Shown here one piece after another: positions 53,565-64,000 of a DNA stretch of 64,000 nucleotides. Under the pieces are notes generated by a model. That model worked only from the letters and a program-made list of their open reading frames with translations. It had not been told where the DNA came from and made no database searches. Source of the stretch: Spirochaetia bacterium (GTDB lineage Bacteria > Spirochaetota > Spirochaetia > DSM-16054 > Sediminispirochaetaceae); contig JAXHMY010000001.1 in assembly GCA_034520965.1 (NCBI GenBank), positions 1,050,233-1,114,232 on the forward strand. The letters run 5' to 3'. Within the stretch, counting starts at the first letter, position 1. Each line of letters opens with the position of its first letter. Both the position numbers and the translations under genes were made by a program.

Positions 53565-53573
53565 AATCCCCTC

Positions 53574-54767
53574 CTATTCCTTCTTTGTTAGATTATTTAC
53601 GGTATTTACTAAATACGCTTTCGTCCTTTCAGCATTTAGCTCTTTAGCAGCCAAATGAGAATTCTTTTTCATATAATCAATCTTGTCTTTGCTCATTCTA
53701 TTAAGCACAAAGCTCATTTTTTCAATATTAAAATCTTCTGAATAAACACCATTCTCATATTTGTCTATTATTTTTTTCATTTCCGGAGAAGGCCAAATTG
53801 CTATTCCAAGTCTACCCTGAATAAACTCGAAAATCTTATTCGGAAGAGCCATTTCTTGGTTAAAAGAATCGGGTGTTAATAAATATAATCCAATATCAAA
53901 TTGATTAAGTGTTCCGGATAAAGTTTTCATATCAACAGGATTATGAAAAAATATTCTTTCATTTTCATTTGCTATTTTCTTTAATTCTTTTCCATAACTA
54001 GTATGCATATTTATAAGAAAAAAATGCAGTTCAAATCTTTTATCGAGTTGATCCATTAAATAAATCATGTTTTCTAAAACACGTCTTCTGCTCGCAGCCC
54101 CATGATGAACAAGTTTTATGGTGTTATTCTTAGTTTTATTCGGTTGTAGATCAGCATAGAAAGGAGTATTCATTAATACATCACATTTTACTCTGAATTC
54201 TTCTGAATACTTGTTTGCTATTCCATCACAGACGGTTGTCATATGCTCAGCATGAGGAAGATATTTGCCACAAAAATATGTCCAATAACCTTCATAATAT
54301 TTAATAAAATGCTTTGTATTAAAATGAAGCGGTTCATACTCATGGGCATCTATATACAAATTACAGTTAAACCATTTTTTTAACTTAACTGAAAGTGGAA
54401 GAGCAGGAATATCATTTGCAATAATTAAATCAACATTGTCAACTTTATCTCTAATGCTACTTAGTGTTTTTCTAACATAATCCTGGTTCCAGTAGTGTTT
54501 TTCATATTGTTTCGTATATAAATAGATTTTTTCTATTGTCAGTCTAATTTTTTCTACAATTTTTTTAATTACATTTTCAATTGAAAATTTTTTCCAGATA
54601 GAGAAACTCTTTCTTTTTTCCAACTTAATAAACTGATCTTCAATATTAGAAGGTTTCAAACCGCAAGTAGTAATGTAGTATCCAGCCTCTTTTAGAAATA
54701 AAATTTGTTTGTATACTCGCGGATCGATATCTAAATTGGATTTTGATATTATCAATATCTTTTTCAA
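53574..54767 (-). CDS. GT-B glycosyltransferase
   Basis: DPRV, IIAND, DAHEY, HHGAA..R, ALPNKIFEFIQ. Confidence 0.82.
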   Translation of the reverse strand: MKKILIISKSNLDIDPRVYKQILFLKEAGYYITTCGLKPSNIEDQFIKLEKRKSFSIWKKFSIENVIKKIVEKIRLTIEKIYLYTKQYEKHYWNQDYVRKTLSSIRDKVDNVDLIIANDIPALPLSVKLKKWFNCNLYIDAHEYEPLHFNTKHFIKYYEGYWTYFCGKYLPHAEHMTTVCDGIANKYSEEFRVKCDVLMNTPFYADLQPNKTKNNTIKLVHHGAASRRRVLENMIYLMDQLDKRFELHFFLINMHTSYGKELKKIANENERIFFHNPVDMKTLSGTLNQFDIGLYLLTPDSFNQEMALPNKIFEFIQGRLGIAIWPSPEMKKIIDKYENGVYSEDFNIEKMSFVLNRMSKDKIDYMKKNSHLAAKELNAERTKAYLVNTVNNLTKKE

Positions 54768-57073
54768 TTTTTTCTTTCCTTTTCTAGCATAGTACTCCAT
54801 TTATAAAGATTATAGTTATCAATACTTTTTATATGGTTGAACTCTTTATTCTCTATTATAAAATCTTTAGCGGAATATTGTTTATTTTTAGCAACAAAAA
54901 AGCCTCGCTCATACTCTAATGCTTCATCTAACTGATTCACAGATGCTGCATCACTAATAAAAAATATATTATTGCCTATATCGTATAAAGTATCATTATA
55001 TATCGGAATATTATAGGTTCTATTCACAGTCTGAGAAAACAACCAAGTTAAAGTTTCCGGTCTTTGAACATCCGCAAGAATTATTGATTTGTTGGTAGCA
55101 CCATTTTTCCTTAATATTTTTTCAATTTCATAATAGATGTCCTTCTGTGCTAATTTTGTAATTTTTCTGTTATCTTTCTGATTTGGTAAATCATGCTTTA
55201 CAGCATGAATTGTGTTATAAGGGTATATAAAAGCAACTAAAAAGAAAACTAAAGCAAGTTTACTCATATACATAAGTCTGTATTTACTACTATTAAAAAA
55301 TACCATGCGAAACTTTCCAATAAAAGAGTCAATGCCATCAGCTATAATAAAAATGTAAAAAGGTAACAAATGGAATAAAAATCTACTGCCAAATCTGCTC
55401 GTTTTTATACCAAACAGTAATACGGTTGCAATGAAGGTAGCATAAATACTGATTCTAAGAATATTCCACTTTTTATTTTTATCTAATAACGGAAGTGACA
55501 TAAATAGCAACGGAGTAAATATGGTGAATCTTTGGTGGGAAAACCACTGGACTGGTGTATCAATCATTGGGTCAATGAACATACCAAAGTATTCAACTAT
55601 AAAACCAAAATCTTTTGTGAAAGGGGGGAACCTATGCACAAGCAGGAGAAAGGTAAGCACTAATAAACCAAATATTGAAGCTATAAAAAATCGATTGTGA
55701 CGACTGTGTTTTTTCCAAAGAAAAATAAAAAAAAGGAATGCAGAAAAAAATAGATTGACCTGCACAACGCCTAGAACAGTTTGATGGGAAAATAGTGTTG
55801 AAAAATAATATAGAAAGATAGTTGTGAATATTATCCATATACCAATACTTACACCTAACACTAAACTTGAACTATTTCTATACTTTTGAAATACTTTATA
55901 AGTGAGATAATAAACGATAGCCCCTATGAACAAGTTTACCGTATAGTCCCTGATCTGTGTGCTTTTCTCTATTGCCCATGGTGATAACGTTAGTAAAAGT
56001 ACTCCTATAAATGCAATTTTTATTGACAATTGTTTAAACAGTTTGTACACAGGATATACAGTTAAAGCTCCCATCAAAGAAAAGGGTAATCTAGCGATGA
56101 ATAAACTCTTTCCAAATACACTAAATAGCCAAGAAATCAATAAAGTAAAATGAATATTACGCGGGTAATGAAACTCCCCTGTATCATTTAGTGCAAGGGC
56201 AGAGATTAAATTAAAAATATCTCCACCCTGCAAATAATTATAGTTAATCATACGAAGAAAAAAAGCACATAGAAATAATACTGTAAGAAAAATATATTCT
56301 TTTCTATTACTAAAAATGATGGGGTATTCATTTTGTTGGATCGACTTCTTATGAGTAAGAATTAGCAGAAGTGTTCCACACAGAAAAGTAGATATTATCC
56401 TAGGATATAGTACAAATATAAAATCACTGACAAAGGTGTTTGCATTTCTGTATAGTTCTTGGAGATCTATGAAACTGATTAGCCCAACAATTACTACAGA
56501 AGTTAAGAATACCCACTTAAAAACGGGCTGCCTATATACTTTGATAAAATTGAGCAGTGTAATCATAGAAAATATAGTTAAAGCGCGAATTAGATGTATT
56601 ATAATAACAGCTAAATCACCTCTATAATTTACCACATTCTTCAGATAAGGAAATATACTATTATAACTAAAGATCGTACTTAGCTTAATAGTATTTACTT
56701 TGCTATTTTTATAATTTACTACTTTATTACCAATTACTATTTTTAGTGCTTTACTTTTTGCTAAGTTGTTATCACTAAATTCAATGAATACATCTTCACA
56801 ATACTTATCCTTAATAATCCAACTTACACTTCCGTCATTTTTATAAATCGGATCTATTTTTTCTATGTTGTTTCTTAAGGAGAGGCGATATACAGCTATT
56901 TTGTTTGCACTAAAAACTTCAGTTCTATTGACCATAATTTCAATATTATTAATTACTGGATTATATGGTCTATTGAAGTAAGATCCAACAATACCTGAAT
57001 AAAAAGAGACAAAAGTGTCAGCAGCTAAAAATATTATAAATAGTAAAATTACTTTTCTTTTTGATAACAACAT
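54764..57073 (-). CDS. Large GT-C fold (ArnT/PMT-like) membrane glycosyltransferase, 769 aa
   Basis: Many TMs; GKSLFIARLP, LSPW.I..S..IRDY, SRFLFHLLP; N- and C-terminal soluble domains. Confidence 0.72.
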   Translation of the reverse strand: MLLSKRKVILLFIIFLAADTFVSFYSGIVGSYFNRPYNPVINNIEIMVNRTEVFSANKIAVYRLSLRNNIEKIDPIYKNDGSVSWIIKDKYCEDVFIEFSDNNLAKSKALKIVIGNKVVNYKNSKVNTIKLSTIFSYNSIFPYLKNVVNYRGDLAVIIIHLIRALTIFSMITLLNFIKVYRQPVFKWVFLTSVVIVGLISFIDLQELYRNANTFVSDFIFVLYPRIISTFLCGTLLLILTHKKSIQQNEYPIIFSNRKEYIFLTVLFLCAFFLRMINYNYLQGGDIFNLISALALNDTGEFHYPRNIHFTLLISWLFSVFGKSLFIARLPFSLMGALTVYPVYKLFKQLSIKIAFIGVLLLTLSPWAIEKSTQIRDYTVNLFIGAIVYYLTYKVFQKYRNSSSLVLGVSIGIWIIFTTIFLYYFSTLFSHQTVLGVVQVNLFFSAFLFFIFLWKKHSRHNRFFIASIFGLLVLTFLLLVHRFPPFTKDFGFIVEYFGMFIDPMIDTPVQWFSHQRFTIFTPLLFMSLPLLDKNKKWNILRISIYATFIATVLLFGIKTSRFGSRFLFHLLPFYIFIIADGIDSFIGKFRMVFFNSSKYRLMYMSKLALVFFLVAFIYPYNTIHAVKHDLPNQKDNRKITKLAQKDIYYEIEKILRKNGATNKSIILADVQRPETLTWLFSQTVNRTYNIPIYNDTLYDIGNNIFFISDAASVNQLDEALEYERGFFVAKNKQYSAKDFIIENKEFNHIKSIDNYNLYKWSTMLEKERKN

Positions 57074-57085
57074 GTTGCCAACTTT

Positions 57086-58875
57086 TTAATTTTTTTTACC
57101 TTGGGCCAGCTGTCTGAATGATTGATTACTTTCAAACAGCTCCTCATATGTACCTTTATCAACAATTTTTCCTTTATCAAGCATAAAGATTTGATCACAT
57201 TCTCTGAGGGTAGTAAGCCTATGAGCAATCATTAAAATAGTTTTTTGTCCGCTCAGGGCCTTAATTGCATCCATTATTGCATCTTCAGTAAAACCATCAA
57301 GAGCACTAGTTGCCTCGTCGAGGATGAGTACAGAAGGATTTTTGTAAACCGCTCTTGCAATACCTAAACGTTGCCTCTGACCTCCAGACAATCTTATTCC
57401 TCTTTCCCCTATAACGGTTTCATAACCATAGGGCAACTCGCTCTCAATGAAATTGTCGATGTTCGCAACAGAGGCGGCTCTTTTCACCTCTGTTGTATAG
57501 ATACTTTCTTTTTTTTCACCAAATGCGATATTTTGTGCAACGGTATCATCACTGAGATAAATATTTTGTTGTACATACCCTAATGTGTTTTGCCAGCGAA
57601 AAATATCTTTACCTTCTATCTTCTTACCATCAATCCGCAATTCCCCTGATTGGGGTTCCAATAGTCCTAAAATAATATCTATTATTGTAGTTTTCCCACA
57701 TCCGGTTGGGCCCACGAACCCGACAGTCGTATTGGCCTTTATTGTCAGAGTTTGATCCTTAATTACTGGCACTTTACTGTTAGGATATGAAAAAGTAATA
57801 TTGTTCAAAGTAATATCTTCATTTATAGACAATGCATCGCCATCGTAAACTTTAATAGCCCTTCCAGAATACATATGATTGTAAAGCAAATCTACTGCTG
57901 GCAGATTATAGCGCATGCTTGTAACACCTCGAAAAACTGCCTGGAGTGAGGGCATCAATCTATATCCTGCTAAAGCATACAGACCAATCATTGGAATAGC
58001 ATTATCAAGCTGTCCTTCAGTATAGAGAATAAAAAGTAGTAGAACTACAATACCGCCAAAAGCAACTGTTTCCAATAAATATCTAGGAATTTCGCTGATC
58101 ACTGCATTTTTTATCCCATTCCTAGCAAGTTTCAATGACGGTCTGGCAAATTGATCAATAAAGTTTTCTTCCTTGTGCAGTATCTTTACATCTTTTATTC
58201 CGCCCAGAACTTCTGCAACGCCCTTATACTGCCCTCGACTTGTTCTACTCTTTCTTTACCAATTCTATGAAGGATTTTTCTGGAAACAGATAAATACCAG
58301 TGTAAGAAAAGCCTAATACCCCTGCTACTATCAGTGCGATCATAGGATTGATACTTAGTAACAATCCTATGATGAAAAGTACAACAATAGCCTGTGCAAG
58401 CATCTTAAGGCCAGGATACATCGCTTTCTGAATAACTATGTTAACTTCACTAATTATATTCTTTTGAAGCTCAGCGCTATTATGATCTAAGAAAAAAGTA
58501 TATGGCTGATATACATAATGTTTAAGCAACCTTCTAGATAATGCATATTTCCTCATTGCCGAATATCTTTTTGTAATATAGGTAATCATTGCTCTTGATG
58601 CATTACTGATAAGCAAGAATACTACGAATAGCACTCCTAAAGTAGTAATGAATTGTGTGTACGAACTAAAGTTAAAATAGTTATACGCCCAATTCAAATA
58701 TTTATTAGTTTCTATACTTTCTGGATTGGTGGCTACCGACAGAAAAGGCATAATTGAGCCAATCCCTGCCAATTCAAGAAAGCCCATCAATAGTATAAGT
58801 ATAAAAACCAGAACTAACTTTCCGCCGCTCATCCTTAATAAGGAGAGCCGGCAGTTTTTTCACATATATAAACAT
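57086..58875 (-). CDS. PglK/MsbA-like ABC flippase (TMD+NBD), frameshifts near 58820 and 58280
   Basis: ELAGIGSIMPF TMD; GPTGCGKTT, LSGGQRQR, LDEATSALD, IAHRL. Confidence 0.9.
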
Positions 58876-60640: not shown

Positions 60641-61736
<1,096 letters not shown>

Positions 61737-61853
61737 CTATTCATAGATATTGTAGAGACGAAGTCCATACTGCCCTTGTATACAAAATAACACATCGACT
61801 ACATCTACTCTACAGATCTATTCGGCTCAAATATCATCATCTCGATGTAATCG

Positions 61854-61877
61854 AGTAAACTAATAAACCTCCGACCC
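61854..61877. repeat. Direct repeat, left copy (AGTAAACTAATAAACCTCCGACCC)
   Basis: 23/24 identical to 63701-63724; abuts the TGA of the NTase gene. Confidence 0.9.
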
Positions 61878-62512
61878 TCACGCGTGAGATTCAAAGAACT
61901 CGCGGATCTTCTGTTTGCTGACTTGTTCTTTCGGCTCGAGGTGCCGAATATCATCATCTTCAATGTCGTCAATATAGAGCAGGGCGACAATAAACAGCTT
62001 GTAGGTCACTCCCTCCACAATATTTTCACTCATTCTAAAAATATCCTTGAGGCTGAAAACTTCTTTTGCCAGGATATACAGATCGTAGTAATCACGATAT
62101 TTCGCCCTCAGAAAAAGGAACTGCACCTTCATAGCGGCCAGCTGATCGAGGGTTGCAAGATTCAGTCTGCCCGGTGTCGGCGGGCTTTGCGGTTTCAGAA
62201 AACTCCATTTCGCATTGAAAAAAGTAACCTTAACTCCATCGAGAAGCACATCTATCTGCTCATCCGTTTGGTTGAGGATTTCCTTGTTTTGGAAGTGTGT
62301 GAAAAAATCGAGGAGCTACTTTCTTTTGAAAAACTGTCGTCATAAGTGAAAAAATCCAGATCTTCACTCTTGCGATGACAGAGATGCAGCGATAGGGCGC
62401 TGCCGCCGGCAAGAACATACTTGTGCAGAAACTTCACAGTTGTCCCGCAGTTTCAGTAATAGCTTCCTCGTCTCAGGAAGCACGCGTTATCTAAGTTGTT
62501 CAAGTCGTCCAT
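61878..62512 (-). CDS. AbiEii/AbiGii-type nucleotidyltransferase, several frameshifts
   Basis: LAGGSALSLHLCHRKSEDLDFF, VKVTFF, AAMK..RAKYRDYYDLY; probable ATG 62512 overlapping the upstream gene end. Confidence 0.85.
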
Positions 62513-63668
62513 TTTCTTTTGCCGCTTCCTTGAAGTACGTGCTCTCTACATCCATCCCGAAGAAAAGGCGCGCCAGCATCAGATTCGTTTTGATAAATCT
62601 TCTGTCGCTTTTCATCCTCCGTTCCCATACTTTTTTTACCGACCTTTTTCCAAAAAGCTCGAAACAGAGTTTTATATCGTCGAAATCGGCATACTTCAGG
62701 CTATGCTCTATAAGAAGGTTCCCGCCAGCCTCCTCATAGCTCAGGTCTTTCCGGTAGCTCCGAATAGTCCTTTGTCCCGGAGCTTCAAATAGCTTCTCTT
62801 TGCGCGCGTAGTTCCTGCTCCGCTTCGAGATTGCCGCTTTCGAAAGGCCCAAATAATGGCCCACTTCAACCGCACGGTGCCCGTCCCGCACCGCCCGTAC
62901 GATGGCGGCTTCAGTTGCTTCGGAACAGAGGGCTTTTGCGTCGTTTCCTTGGGTGTCGGATCCTTGAGTGCCGGCTCTTTGAGTGCCGGCTCCCCCCACA
63001 ACGCCTTCTCGCGGGATGGACGGTTCCTGGCCGGTTCCAAAATAAGAACCCAGAGGGGGAAGGTCCCGTGCGTGGTCCCGGGGCGGAGGTGTACCCTGTT
63101 GAGCATTCTCCTGGGTACCCTGCTTCGATTTGTACAGTTCTTCGATTTGCGCCAGTTCCTCCTTGCTCAAATCCGTATCGAGGCTGACTGCATTGAGCAA
63201 TTCGTAATTAAGCGTCGAAAGATTGCCAATAATCGCGGGCAAGGCGGAAGACATAGCCCATGGGTAACTGCCGATCTGCCGAGTAATTCCTGCTTTTATT
63301 AGGTTGAACTCAATATAACGCACTAAAGTGTACAGTTTTCTCTCGGTGTAAATAAAATAAGCCTTGAACCTGTCCTGCCAGAGAGGTCCCACTCTGTCGT
63401 ACTTCCTGTTAAAGTATACCGTGTATCTCGATGCGATCTTCTGCATGAAGCGCGAAAGGTTCTCTTCCTTTGTCTCAATAAGAAGATGGTAATGGTTAGG
63501 CATCAGACAGAAAGAATAGAGCTCGAATCCATATTCAGTACCCGCTTCCTCAACTATTGCCAGAAACTTCCGGTAATCCCCCTCATCGAGATATATCCTG
63601 TTTTTTGCGACCCCCCGATTGAGCACATGATAAAACCCAACCCTGGACAGTCTTCTTTTGCGCGCCAT
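62487..63668 (-). CDS. REP-associated-type Y1 HUH transposase (RAYT) fused to an HTH and a DUF6922-like antitoxin domain
   Basis: YHVLNRG, FCLMPNHYHL (HUH), GPLWQDRF, RYIEFN..KAG, YPW; EVGHYLGLSKAAISK HTH; C-terminal SY...LLIEHSLKYADFDDI..LFG..VKKVW. Confidence 0.85.
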   Translation of the reverse strand: MARKRRLSRVGFYHVLNRGVAKNRIYLDEGDYRKFLAIVEEAGTEYGFELYSFCLMPNHYHLLIETKEENLSRFMQKIASRYTVYFNRKYDRVGPLWQDRFKAYFIYTERKLYTLVRYIEFNLIKAGITRQIGSYPWAMSSALPAIIGNLSTLNYELLNAVSLDTDLSKEELAQIEELYKSKQGTQENAQQGTPPPRDHARDLPPLGSYFGTGQEPSIPREGVVGGAGTQRAGTQGSDTQGNDAKALCSEATEAAIVRAVRDGHRAVEVGHYLGLSKAAISKRSRNYARKEKLFEAPGQRTIRSYRKDLSYEEAGGNLLIEHSLKYADFDDIKLCFELFGKRSVKKVWERRMKSDRRFIKTNLMLARLFFGMDVESTYFKEAAKENGRLEQLR

Positions 63669-63700
63669 TATGCTTTAAAGGTAATGCGGTTTTATAAAAA

Positions 63701-63724
63701 AGTAAACTAGTAAACCTCCGACCC
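63701..63724. repeat. Direct repeat, right copy (AGTAAACTAGTAAACCTCCGACCC)
   Basis: 23/24 identical to 61854-61877; 32 bp upstream of the transposase ATG. Confidence 0.9.
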
Positions 63725-63737
63725 CTATCCTACTATA

Positions 63738-64000
63738 CTAAAGTGGAGGGAGTTGGGAGAGCCGAACCCTGGAATAAGCCTGTCTTTTTGCATCTTCCGG
63801 ATGTGGTTCCAGGCCAATAATGGTTAGTTCGTTTTTACCGGGTCCATACACCCAGAAAATTCGACCTGCAGCGGGGGTATTGTTTTCAAGGTACGATTGC
63901 CACAACTTCTCTCCGTATCGCCTGCTAAGTTCAGATATTTCGTGGGTCTGCAGGCTGTTGTGCCTTGGATCAACAGCTAACAAACGGAAGGTTTTTATCC
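63738..64000 (-). CDS. RelE/ParE-superfamily-like toxin (5' truncated by window end)
   Basis: Frame open to the window edge; DPRHNSLQTHE, WQSYLENNTP.AGRIFWVYGP..LTIIGLEPHP. Confidence 0.6.
   Translation of the reverse strand, partial: IKTFRLLAVDPRHNSLQTHEISELSRRYGEKLWQSYLENNTPAAGRIFWVYGPGKNELTIIGLEPHPEDAKRQAYSRVRLSQLPPL

Follow-up and report, generated by a model that had tools for sequence, protein, structure and literature searches.

The window, the whole 64,000-nt stretch of DNA analysed here, ends where contig C1 of its source assembly ends, and the locus of interest lies at that end on the minus strand. In the direction of transcription it begins with a gene for a putative RelE-like toxin, of which the contig end leaves only the 3' part (63738..64000). 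An 8-nt spacer (63725..63732), with a candidate nick position at its outer edge, leads to the first copy of a 24-bp motif (63701..63724), a TIRtron-type left end whose last six bases, TTTACT, form a −35-like hexamer. Together with a 17-nt spacer and a −10-like TACCTT, this hexamer makes up the predicted promoter (63678..63706) of tnpA (62487..63668), which encodes a TIRYT-type Y1 HUH transposase fused to an HTH and to a putative antitoxin domain resembling DUF6922. The 3' end of tnpA is overlapped by a gene for an AbiEii-like nucleotidyltransferase (NTase, a putative toxin; 61878..62512) that is frameshifted in the assembly, and behind it follow the second motif copy (61854..61877) and gmd (GDP-mannose dehydratase, 60641..61727), the first host gene behind copy 2 and the start of the visible glycan cluster. 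The two motif copies are in direct orientation and identical at 23 of 24 bases. Copy 2 directly abuts the NTase stop codon (TGA, 61878-61880) and 13 nt separate copy 1 from the TAG (63738-63740) of the partial ORF, which bears out the one-mismatch repeat and the gene-repeat-genes-repeat spacing reported in a preliminary description of this DNA.

Both strands of the 3.35-Mb assembly (nine contigs, 86% complete) were scanned for the motif with up to six mismatches. The two copies at this locus were the only matches, a result that excludes a chance match, and the further copies that the preliminary description had proposed to search for throughout the genome did not turn up. Copy 1 lies 276 nt from the contig end, and no continuation of C1 was found on the other contigs. 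The assembly (G000) is indel-noisy: gmd, fcl and the NTase gene are each split by frameshifts, and the extra bases at 62318, 62324 and 62433 are missing from the contigs of other runs where these cover the positions. The frameshifts in gmd and fcl are likewise missing from run X1, and all of these are likely long-read errors. Short-read contigs of X1, which may be the source sample, span both repeat junctions (61219-62000 and 63386-63997). The host genome holds three FlaA genes, which identifies the host of the window copy as a spirochaete. Further into the glycan cluster, the genes at 53570-58830 lie in a low-GC block (32% versus 50% window-wide), pointing to recent acquisition of that block; the GC content of the tnpA unit is 48% versus 50% for the window.

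The tnpA ORF of 393 aa matches Pfam Y1_Tnp at residues 13-120 (54 bits), and its predicted structure is closest to the TnpA-REP structure 4er8 and also matches IS200/IS605 transposases. In an alignment of full-length homologues, H59, Y60, H61, Y118 and N122 are invariant and P123 is nearly so. The window copy has the HUH core expected of a TIRYT protein (HuH and Y-x3-N-P), with leucine at position 123; proline stands there in runs X2, X4 and X5, and the leucine is either an error or a damaging change. A C-terminal HTH is supported by HTH_23 matches in three of five aligned members, not including the window copy itself, and by three helices at 242-295 in the model of the window protein. Between core and HTH the window copy carries a low-complexity insertion of ~45 aa (62890-63110) that most relatives do not have. 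The DUF6922-like domain behind the HTH is matched in 8 of 34 fused members and appears as an Atlas lead (0.83). Members of the fused family are ~347 aa long and, among the best 120 of 269 matches, align end to end with the window protein, so the transposase fusion is real; a frameshift artefact was considered as its source and is ruled out by these full-length homologues. Tested as a possible REPtron-type (RAYT groups 2-3) protein, the window protein scores 73 bits against NF047646, below the cut-off of 80. Searches among viral contigs gave neither relatives of the fused protein nor an exact motif match, a search of plasmids at 1e-30 gave no match, and a PDB sequence search with the NTase and the tnpA C-terminal domain returned nothing.

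AbiEii Pfam matches above cut-off fall on two fragments of the NTase gene, which is split over three frames in the assembly. In 34 of 35 relatives the NTase start overlaps the tnpA fusion by 38 nt, and the C-terminal domain of the fusion also occurs as a separate gene ahead of the NTase (stand-alone pairs at L172, L173 and L175); the partner upstream of the NTase is DUF6922-like in 8 of 34 cases, not AbiEi. The 38-nt overlap and the stand-alone pairs suggest the layout of a toxin-antitoxin (TA) pair, and the DUF6922-like domain and the overlapping NTase are, judged from their sequences, likely an antitoxin-toxin pair. Such a pair would penalise loss of the transposase segment. DUF6922 had no mention among the papers listed by a literature search. 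For the partial ORF at the window end, the name "RelE-like" from the preliminary description found no Pfam match to back it and keeps a single Atlas feature match to a RelE/YafQ cluster (0.90, rank 21). Homologues of this ORF form a two-gene operon without the motif in G004 and G007, and the gene is probably a preceding passenger.

The nearest known elements are the TIRtrons with their TIRYT transposases (Di Nocera 2013, PMC3733652), which correspond to TnpA-Y1 subclass 2.1.2 (Quentin 2018, PMC6006769) and to RAYT group 1, described as the most IS-like RAYT group (Bertels 2017, PMC5581495). Subclass 2.1 enzymes have a C-terminal HTH and flanking terminal inverted repeats, GGGG[AT][CG]A[CG], according to the accessible parts of these accounts (PMC6006769, PMC3733652). 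Copy 1 with its preceding G matches this end at seven of eight positions, so that what the preliminary description had taken for a recombination site is no new site and corresponds to the known TIRtron end. Across 41 dereplicated fused relatives the end consensus is GGGTCAGAG. Of 49 fused loci that extend far enough, 44 have the motif ahead of the gene, in keeping with the earlier expectation that homologues carry a GGGTC-type repeat. A motif of this kind also precedes the gene in 70 of 77 solo relatives, drawn from GTDB genomes among the best 80 of 597 in a scan that covered part of the collection. The geometry is promoter-like: the −10 ends 9 nt before the ATG, with the same layout in G015, and in 35 of 41 fused relatives a −10 hexamer lies 16-17 nt past the −35-like hexamer (offset 32-33). 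The predicted tnpA promoter scores below the threshold of a generic promoter scan. Folding prediction gave no hairpin in the motif and no stable fold over copy 1. REP and attC readings are rejected on the unstructured motif, the former also on its mere two genomic copies, and the differing sequences upstream of the paired copies dispose of a target-site duplication; the preliminary description had likewise denied that the repeat is a REP or a target-site duplication.

Where the window departs from TIRtrons is at the other end. An inverted copy lies 500-1400 nt downstream in 40 of the 59 solo relatives with room, whereas both copies in the window are direct and the genome holds no inverted one; the element is for this reason a TIRtron derivative, not a member. 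Of 41 fused units, 35 are without a motif in the 100 nt that follow the NTase stop, five have a direct one and one an inverted one, and this sole inverted-end fused unit (L148) falls outside the 36-row subclade that holds the window. A two-gene unit bounded by a second copy, as the preliminary description had it, thus applies to 5 of 41 relatives only. The 24-bp repeat forms the left end of an element derived from TIRtrons, in a clade without the usual inverted right end, and copy 2 is best taken to open the following segment, not to be a right end in its own right. A quick tree of 115 rows, built from proteins of at least 120 aa after removal of near-duplicates, places the fused proteins in a single clade (support 82) nested among Campylobacterota TIRYTs. 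The copies of the window and of G015 sit inside this clade, suggesting that the fused element was transferred into spirochaetes.

Two further observations concern solo TIRYTs. Sulfurimonas and relatives (L039, L044, L045, L046) carry a second solo lineage with the end GTCAGGCAC / GTGTCAGGCAC, in which 12 of 13 neighbour pairs are co-oriented around small genes and TA-like pairs; this lineage may represent another, separate loss of the inverted end. Ordinary inverted-end TIRtrons adjoin the gene for gyrase/topoisomerase IV subunit A at L027, L030, L032 and L036, and this neighbourhood is a conserved TIRtron site in several Campylobacterota.

The orientation of neighbouring motifs separates the fused clade from its relatives. 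At 27 genome loci, retrieved through the motif or the gene and with kin among them that are not independent, 27 motif pairs 0.3-5 kb apart have the same orientation and one the opposite, whereas ordinary solo TIRYT loci have 15 same and 57 opposite pairs. Of 37 extra motif copies near fused genes, 31 are on the strand of the gene. As in integrons, co-oriented sites (27 of 28 pairs) separate accessory cassettes. Long operons may favour an inward −35, and such selection could account for part of the co-orientation.

Motif copies accumulate in several genomes. G226 has three arrays of seven, four and three copies, G397 one of five, and L122 one of six. In G226 the order is gmd-fcl, seven co-oriented motifs enclosing ATPase, PIN and MNT-type genes, a truncated tnpA and a polysaccharide export gene, and in G397 five motifs lie around ParE, YoeB, PIN and HigB-like pairs behind manC. 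Array cargo overall comprises ParE, YoeB, PIN, HipA, YafQ, MNT-HEPN-type, AbiEi/ii and AAA-PD-(D/E)XK genes. Within the window's family, 6 of 17 genomes have the motif, and direct motif pairs enclose PIN/AbrB, BrnT and AbiEii modules; in G003, G004 and G006 (80-96% complete) motif-bounded cassettes are present and no Y1 gene was found. Among 401 sampled Campylobacterota genomes, 31 contain the motif pattern, many as single loose matches, and four the full tnpA fusion. Arrays with TA/Abi cargo, as the preliminary description had proposed, therefore exist in relatives, mostly at glycan loci, whereas the window genome has two copies only. Many TA genes within arrays are without a motif of their own, host genes also lie between motifs (a cysQ-like gene in G226 C44, TauE in G003), and solo motifs occur at unrelated host genes as well. 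Sulfate-activation genes (cysN/cysC/cysQ-like, TauE) are a repeated location of motif copies, seen at L218 (G003), L229 (G015) and L265 (G226) and so in spirochaetes and Campylobacterota alike.

The preliminary description had also proposed to test whether each copy follows a stop codon. In the window's family copies often do: 15 of 26 have a stop on the same strand no more than 10 nt away (mirror control 4 of 26, random 3%). In Campylobacterota the tendency is weak (14 of 79 versus 7 of 86 in the mirror control), and a stop triplet within the spacer accounts for part of it. A glycan gene is among the nearest long ORFs at 16 of 25 fused loci versus 1 of 24 solo Campylobacterota loci, a count over the loci given to Pfam (118 of 146 picked ORFs scanned) in which related loci are not independent.

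Several comparisons show exchanged neighbours at the motif. G015, from another genus, has the same tnpA-NTase unit between the same direct repeats, with a glycosyltransferase on one side and an oxidoreductase on the other. Runs X2, X5 and X6 of a second study contain a tnpA-NTase copy ~98% identical to that of the window. Its agreement with the window breaks off 3 nt above copy 1 on one side and at the lower margin of copy 2 on the other, the two points lying on separate contigs. The 30 loose bases behind copy 2 in X5 equal a segment of G004 (30/30), where the same motif and downstream segment come after an AbiEi/AbiEii-type pair; different cassettes ahead of the same motif, as predicted earlier, are thereby documented. 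In G004 and X2/X3, the motif that adjoins an ABC-transporter end is preceded by the same 8 nt that stand above copy 1.

Near-identical elements have a sharp 5' breakpoint and variable 3' breakpoints, some of which truncate genes, and these edges together with the swapped neighbours uphold the earlier view that the motif marks junctions. Eight pairs with the same downstream sequence share 6, 7, 8, 9, 9, 9, 15 and 0 upstream nucleotides, the 15-nt pair being an internal deletion; four of the eight come from a single locus each and may be duplications made in assembly. At least six upstream bases are shared by 40 of 4935 unrelated pairs. The breakpoints fall into two classes, one 6-9 nt upstream (6 of 8 pairs) and one at 3 nt (X2) or 0 nt (X5/G004/window, L148/L149). 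The circles and empty one-repeat sites anticipated in the preliminary description were not seen in the contigs of six shallow runs. A search for an empty site with gmd DNA in the window's family matched a single distant gmd, and in 40 relatives of G226 fcl matches were ~70% identical, none of them across the junction. Short tandem duplications start 5-10 nt upstream of the motif and end variably, some including part of tnpA (L120, L131, L139, L145, L146, L170, L183, L185); they are abortive events or assembly artefacts. At L147, a GGGGTC end of another sequence family lies ~10 nt downstream of the point where the NTase gene is cut, a hint that TIRYT ends of other kinds may break into the tnpA-NTase unit at a similar distance.

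The reading we favour, and hold to be somewhat better than evenly probable, is a one-ended TIRtron: segments start at the motif, end at the next motif or randomly, and join behind gene ends or before a motif, giving direct stacks. The fused Y1 HUH transposase likely binds the left end, presumably through its HTH, and would nick one strand at the motif or up to about nine bases upstream. A single-stranded segment, perhaps circular, would run from the motif to the next co-oriented motif or to a variable point, and its insertion just behind a gene end or just before an existing motif would yield head-to-tail stacks. In the window, copy 1 would start the tnpA-NTase segment and copy 2 the segment leading into gmd. 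TnpA would act in trans on motif-bounded cassettes, and the tnpA unit itself would be a passenger that comes and goes. By analogy with integrons, the fused enzyme likely stacks and swaps TA genes; that the window's TnpA performs the catalysis is what we infer. A broader generalisation is offered tentatively, its chance of holding in full being well short of even: Y1-HUH cassette stacking by a transposase-antitoxin fusion would use a 24-bp promoter-bearing end as origin and preferred target, piling TA and defence genes head-to-tail in surface-glycan clusters of Campylobacterota and spirochaetes, integron-like in outcome with unrelated chemistry, and would have originated on two or more occasions as TIRtrons lost their inverted end.

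The strongest alternative, which we nevertheless consider unlikely, is a strict integron analogue in which every motif is an attachment site, cassettes leave as precise one-repeat circles and insertion occurs only at motifs. The X5/G004/window triad would fit, as it puts the exchange at the 5' edge of the motif or inside its invariant part, and so would the co-oriented neighbour pairs and the clean TA pairs between direct copies; HUH relaxases are described as recombining 24-bp shared oriT cores (PMC5714925). However, the closing motif is absent from 35 of 41 units, variable 3' breakpoints truncate genes, breakpoints fall at two positions, motifs stand alone at unrelated host genes or enclose host genes, and the contigs of the six runs showed neither circles nor empty sites.

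Somewhat less likely again are passive scars: the enzyme would only drop or leave behind single ends where they are tolerated after stop codons, host recombination between 24-bp copies would do the occasional swapping, and TA genes would gather in glycan islands by other means. Such scars leave unexplained the 27:1 co-orientation against 15:57 in ordinary relatives, the sharp 5' breakpoints and the unit with both motifs in three different contexts, although they agree with the three genomes that hold motif copies without any Y1 gene, with host genes between motifs and with TA genes without motifs. An ordinary composite element with two dedicated direct-repeat ends, moving as one 1.87-kb block, is very improbable: motif-tnpA-NTase-motif does occur in the window, G015 and the X2/X5 copy, but the closing copy is present in only 5 of 41 units, and that of X5 goes with the G004-type downstream segment, with two differing bases that presumably lie within the motif. 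The chance of an assembly artefact at a noisy long-read contig end, a concern already voiced in the preliminary description, is negligible despite the many nearby indel errors and the contig end close above copy 1, since short-read contigs bridge both junctions and G015 has the same layout.

Among known systems, the locus shares with TIRtrons the Y1 HUH core with C-terminal HTH, the GGGG[AT][CG]A[CG]-type end just upstream, dispersed end copies without a REP hairpin, and a protein that nests among TIRYTs. It differs in that the window's clade is without the inverted right end and has its ends in direct head-to-tail arrays, and in its DUF6922-like fusion, coupled NTase, TA cargo and glycan-locus bias. 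The GTAG-tagged palindromic high-copy REPs of REPtrons (RAYT groups 2-3) are absent from the locus, as are the subterminal hairpins and IS200-type TnpA of IS200/IS605 (NF033573, 18 bits with a cut-off of 55) and the Y2 rolling-circle transposase of IS91/ISCR, Y1_Tnp being the only such domain found. IS91 and ISCR use Y2 transposases, and recombination at oriT uses relaxases. HUH enzymes cut a single strand and stay bound to its 5' end; elements of the IS91 and ISCR type begin at one end and can fail to terminate, and short direct sites are recombined by relaxases (PMC5714925). The likeness lies in HUH chemistry, one fixed end, neighbouring DNA carried along by missed termination and, for oriT, recombination between short direct sites, whereas the window enzyme has a small IS200-fold Y1 domain. 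IS26 translocatable units and pseudo-compound transposons also build direct arrays, as a unit with adjacent DNA joins beside an existing copy. IS26, however, has a DDE enzyme and whole-IS repeats, whereas the window system has 24-bp ends and an HUH enzyme.

A subclass 2.1 tnpA beside prochlorosin arrays was proposed to diversify the gene array, and the same study later states that there is no strong evidence for or against causation (bioRxiv 10.1101/2020.03.09.984088); the accessible part of that study, in contrast to the present analysis, contains no end-motif or orientation analysis. Direct-repeat TIRtron arrays, the antitoxin fusion and the glycan bias were not found in the literature covered, mostly main texts outside subscription. 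The enzyme class and the end motif are thus already known, and the one-ended direct-repeat arrangement appears to be new. Subclass 2.1 is the second largest TnpA-Y1 group, found in 14.9% of strains (Quentin 2018, PMC6006769), and the accessible parts of the literature searched describe no substrate, role or biochemistry for it (PMC6006769, PMC3733652, PMC5581495). The fused clade makes the role of subclass 2.1 enzymes directly testable: its 24-bp site is defined, positions for a nick can be proposed, swap alleles occur naturally, and motif orientation contrasts clearly with that in ordinary relatives. If the stacking is enzyme-driven, turnover of phage receptors (surface glycans) would be linked to the accumulation of TA and defence genes, and there would be a second, chemically unrelated route to integron-like arrays.

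As in integrons, small accessory and TA genes are separated by short sites of one orientation, and different cassettes precede the same site. In contrast to integrons, the window system has an HUH enzyme instead of a tyrosine recombinase, its site has a −35-like hexamer and not the fold of an attC-type site, and many fused units have one site only. A search with TIGR02249 found no IntI near the locus and none over cut-off in G004, G015 and G226, and the IntI-like gene of G397 lies on a contig other than that of the array. The source assembly itself contains a probable integron integrase at G000:C3:80037-80989, split by a frameshift (185 + 174 bits, TIGR02249) and unrelated to the motif.
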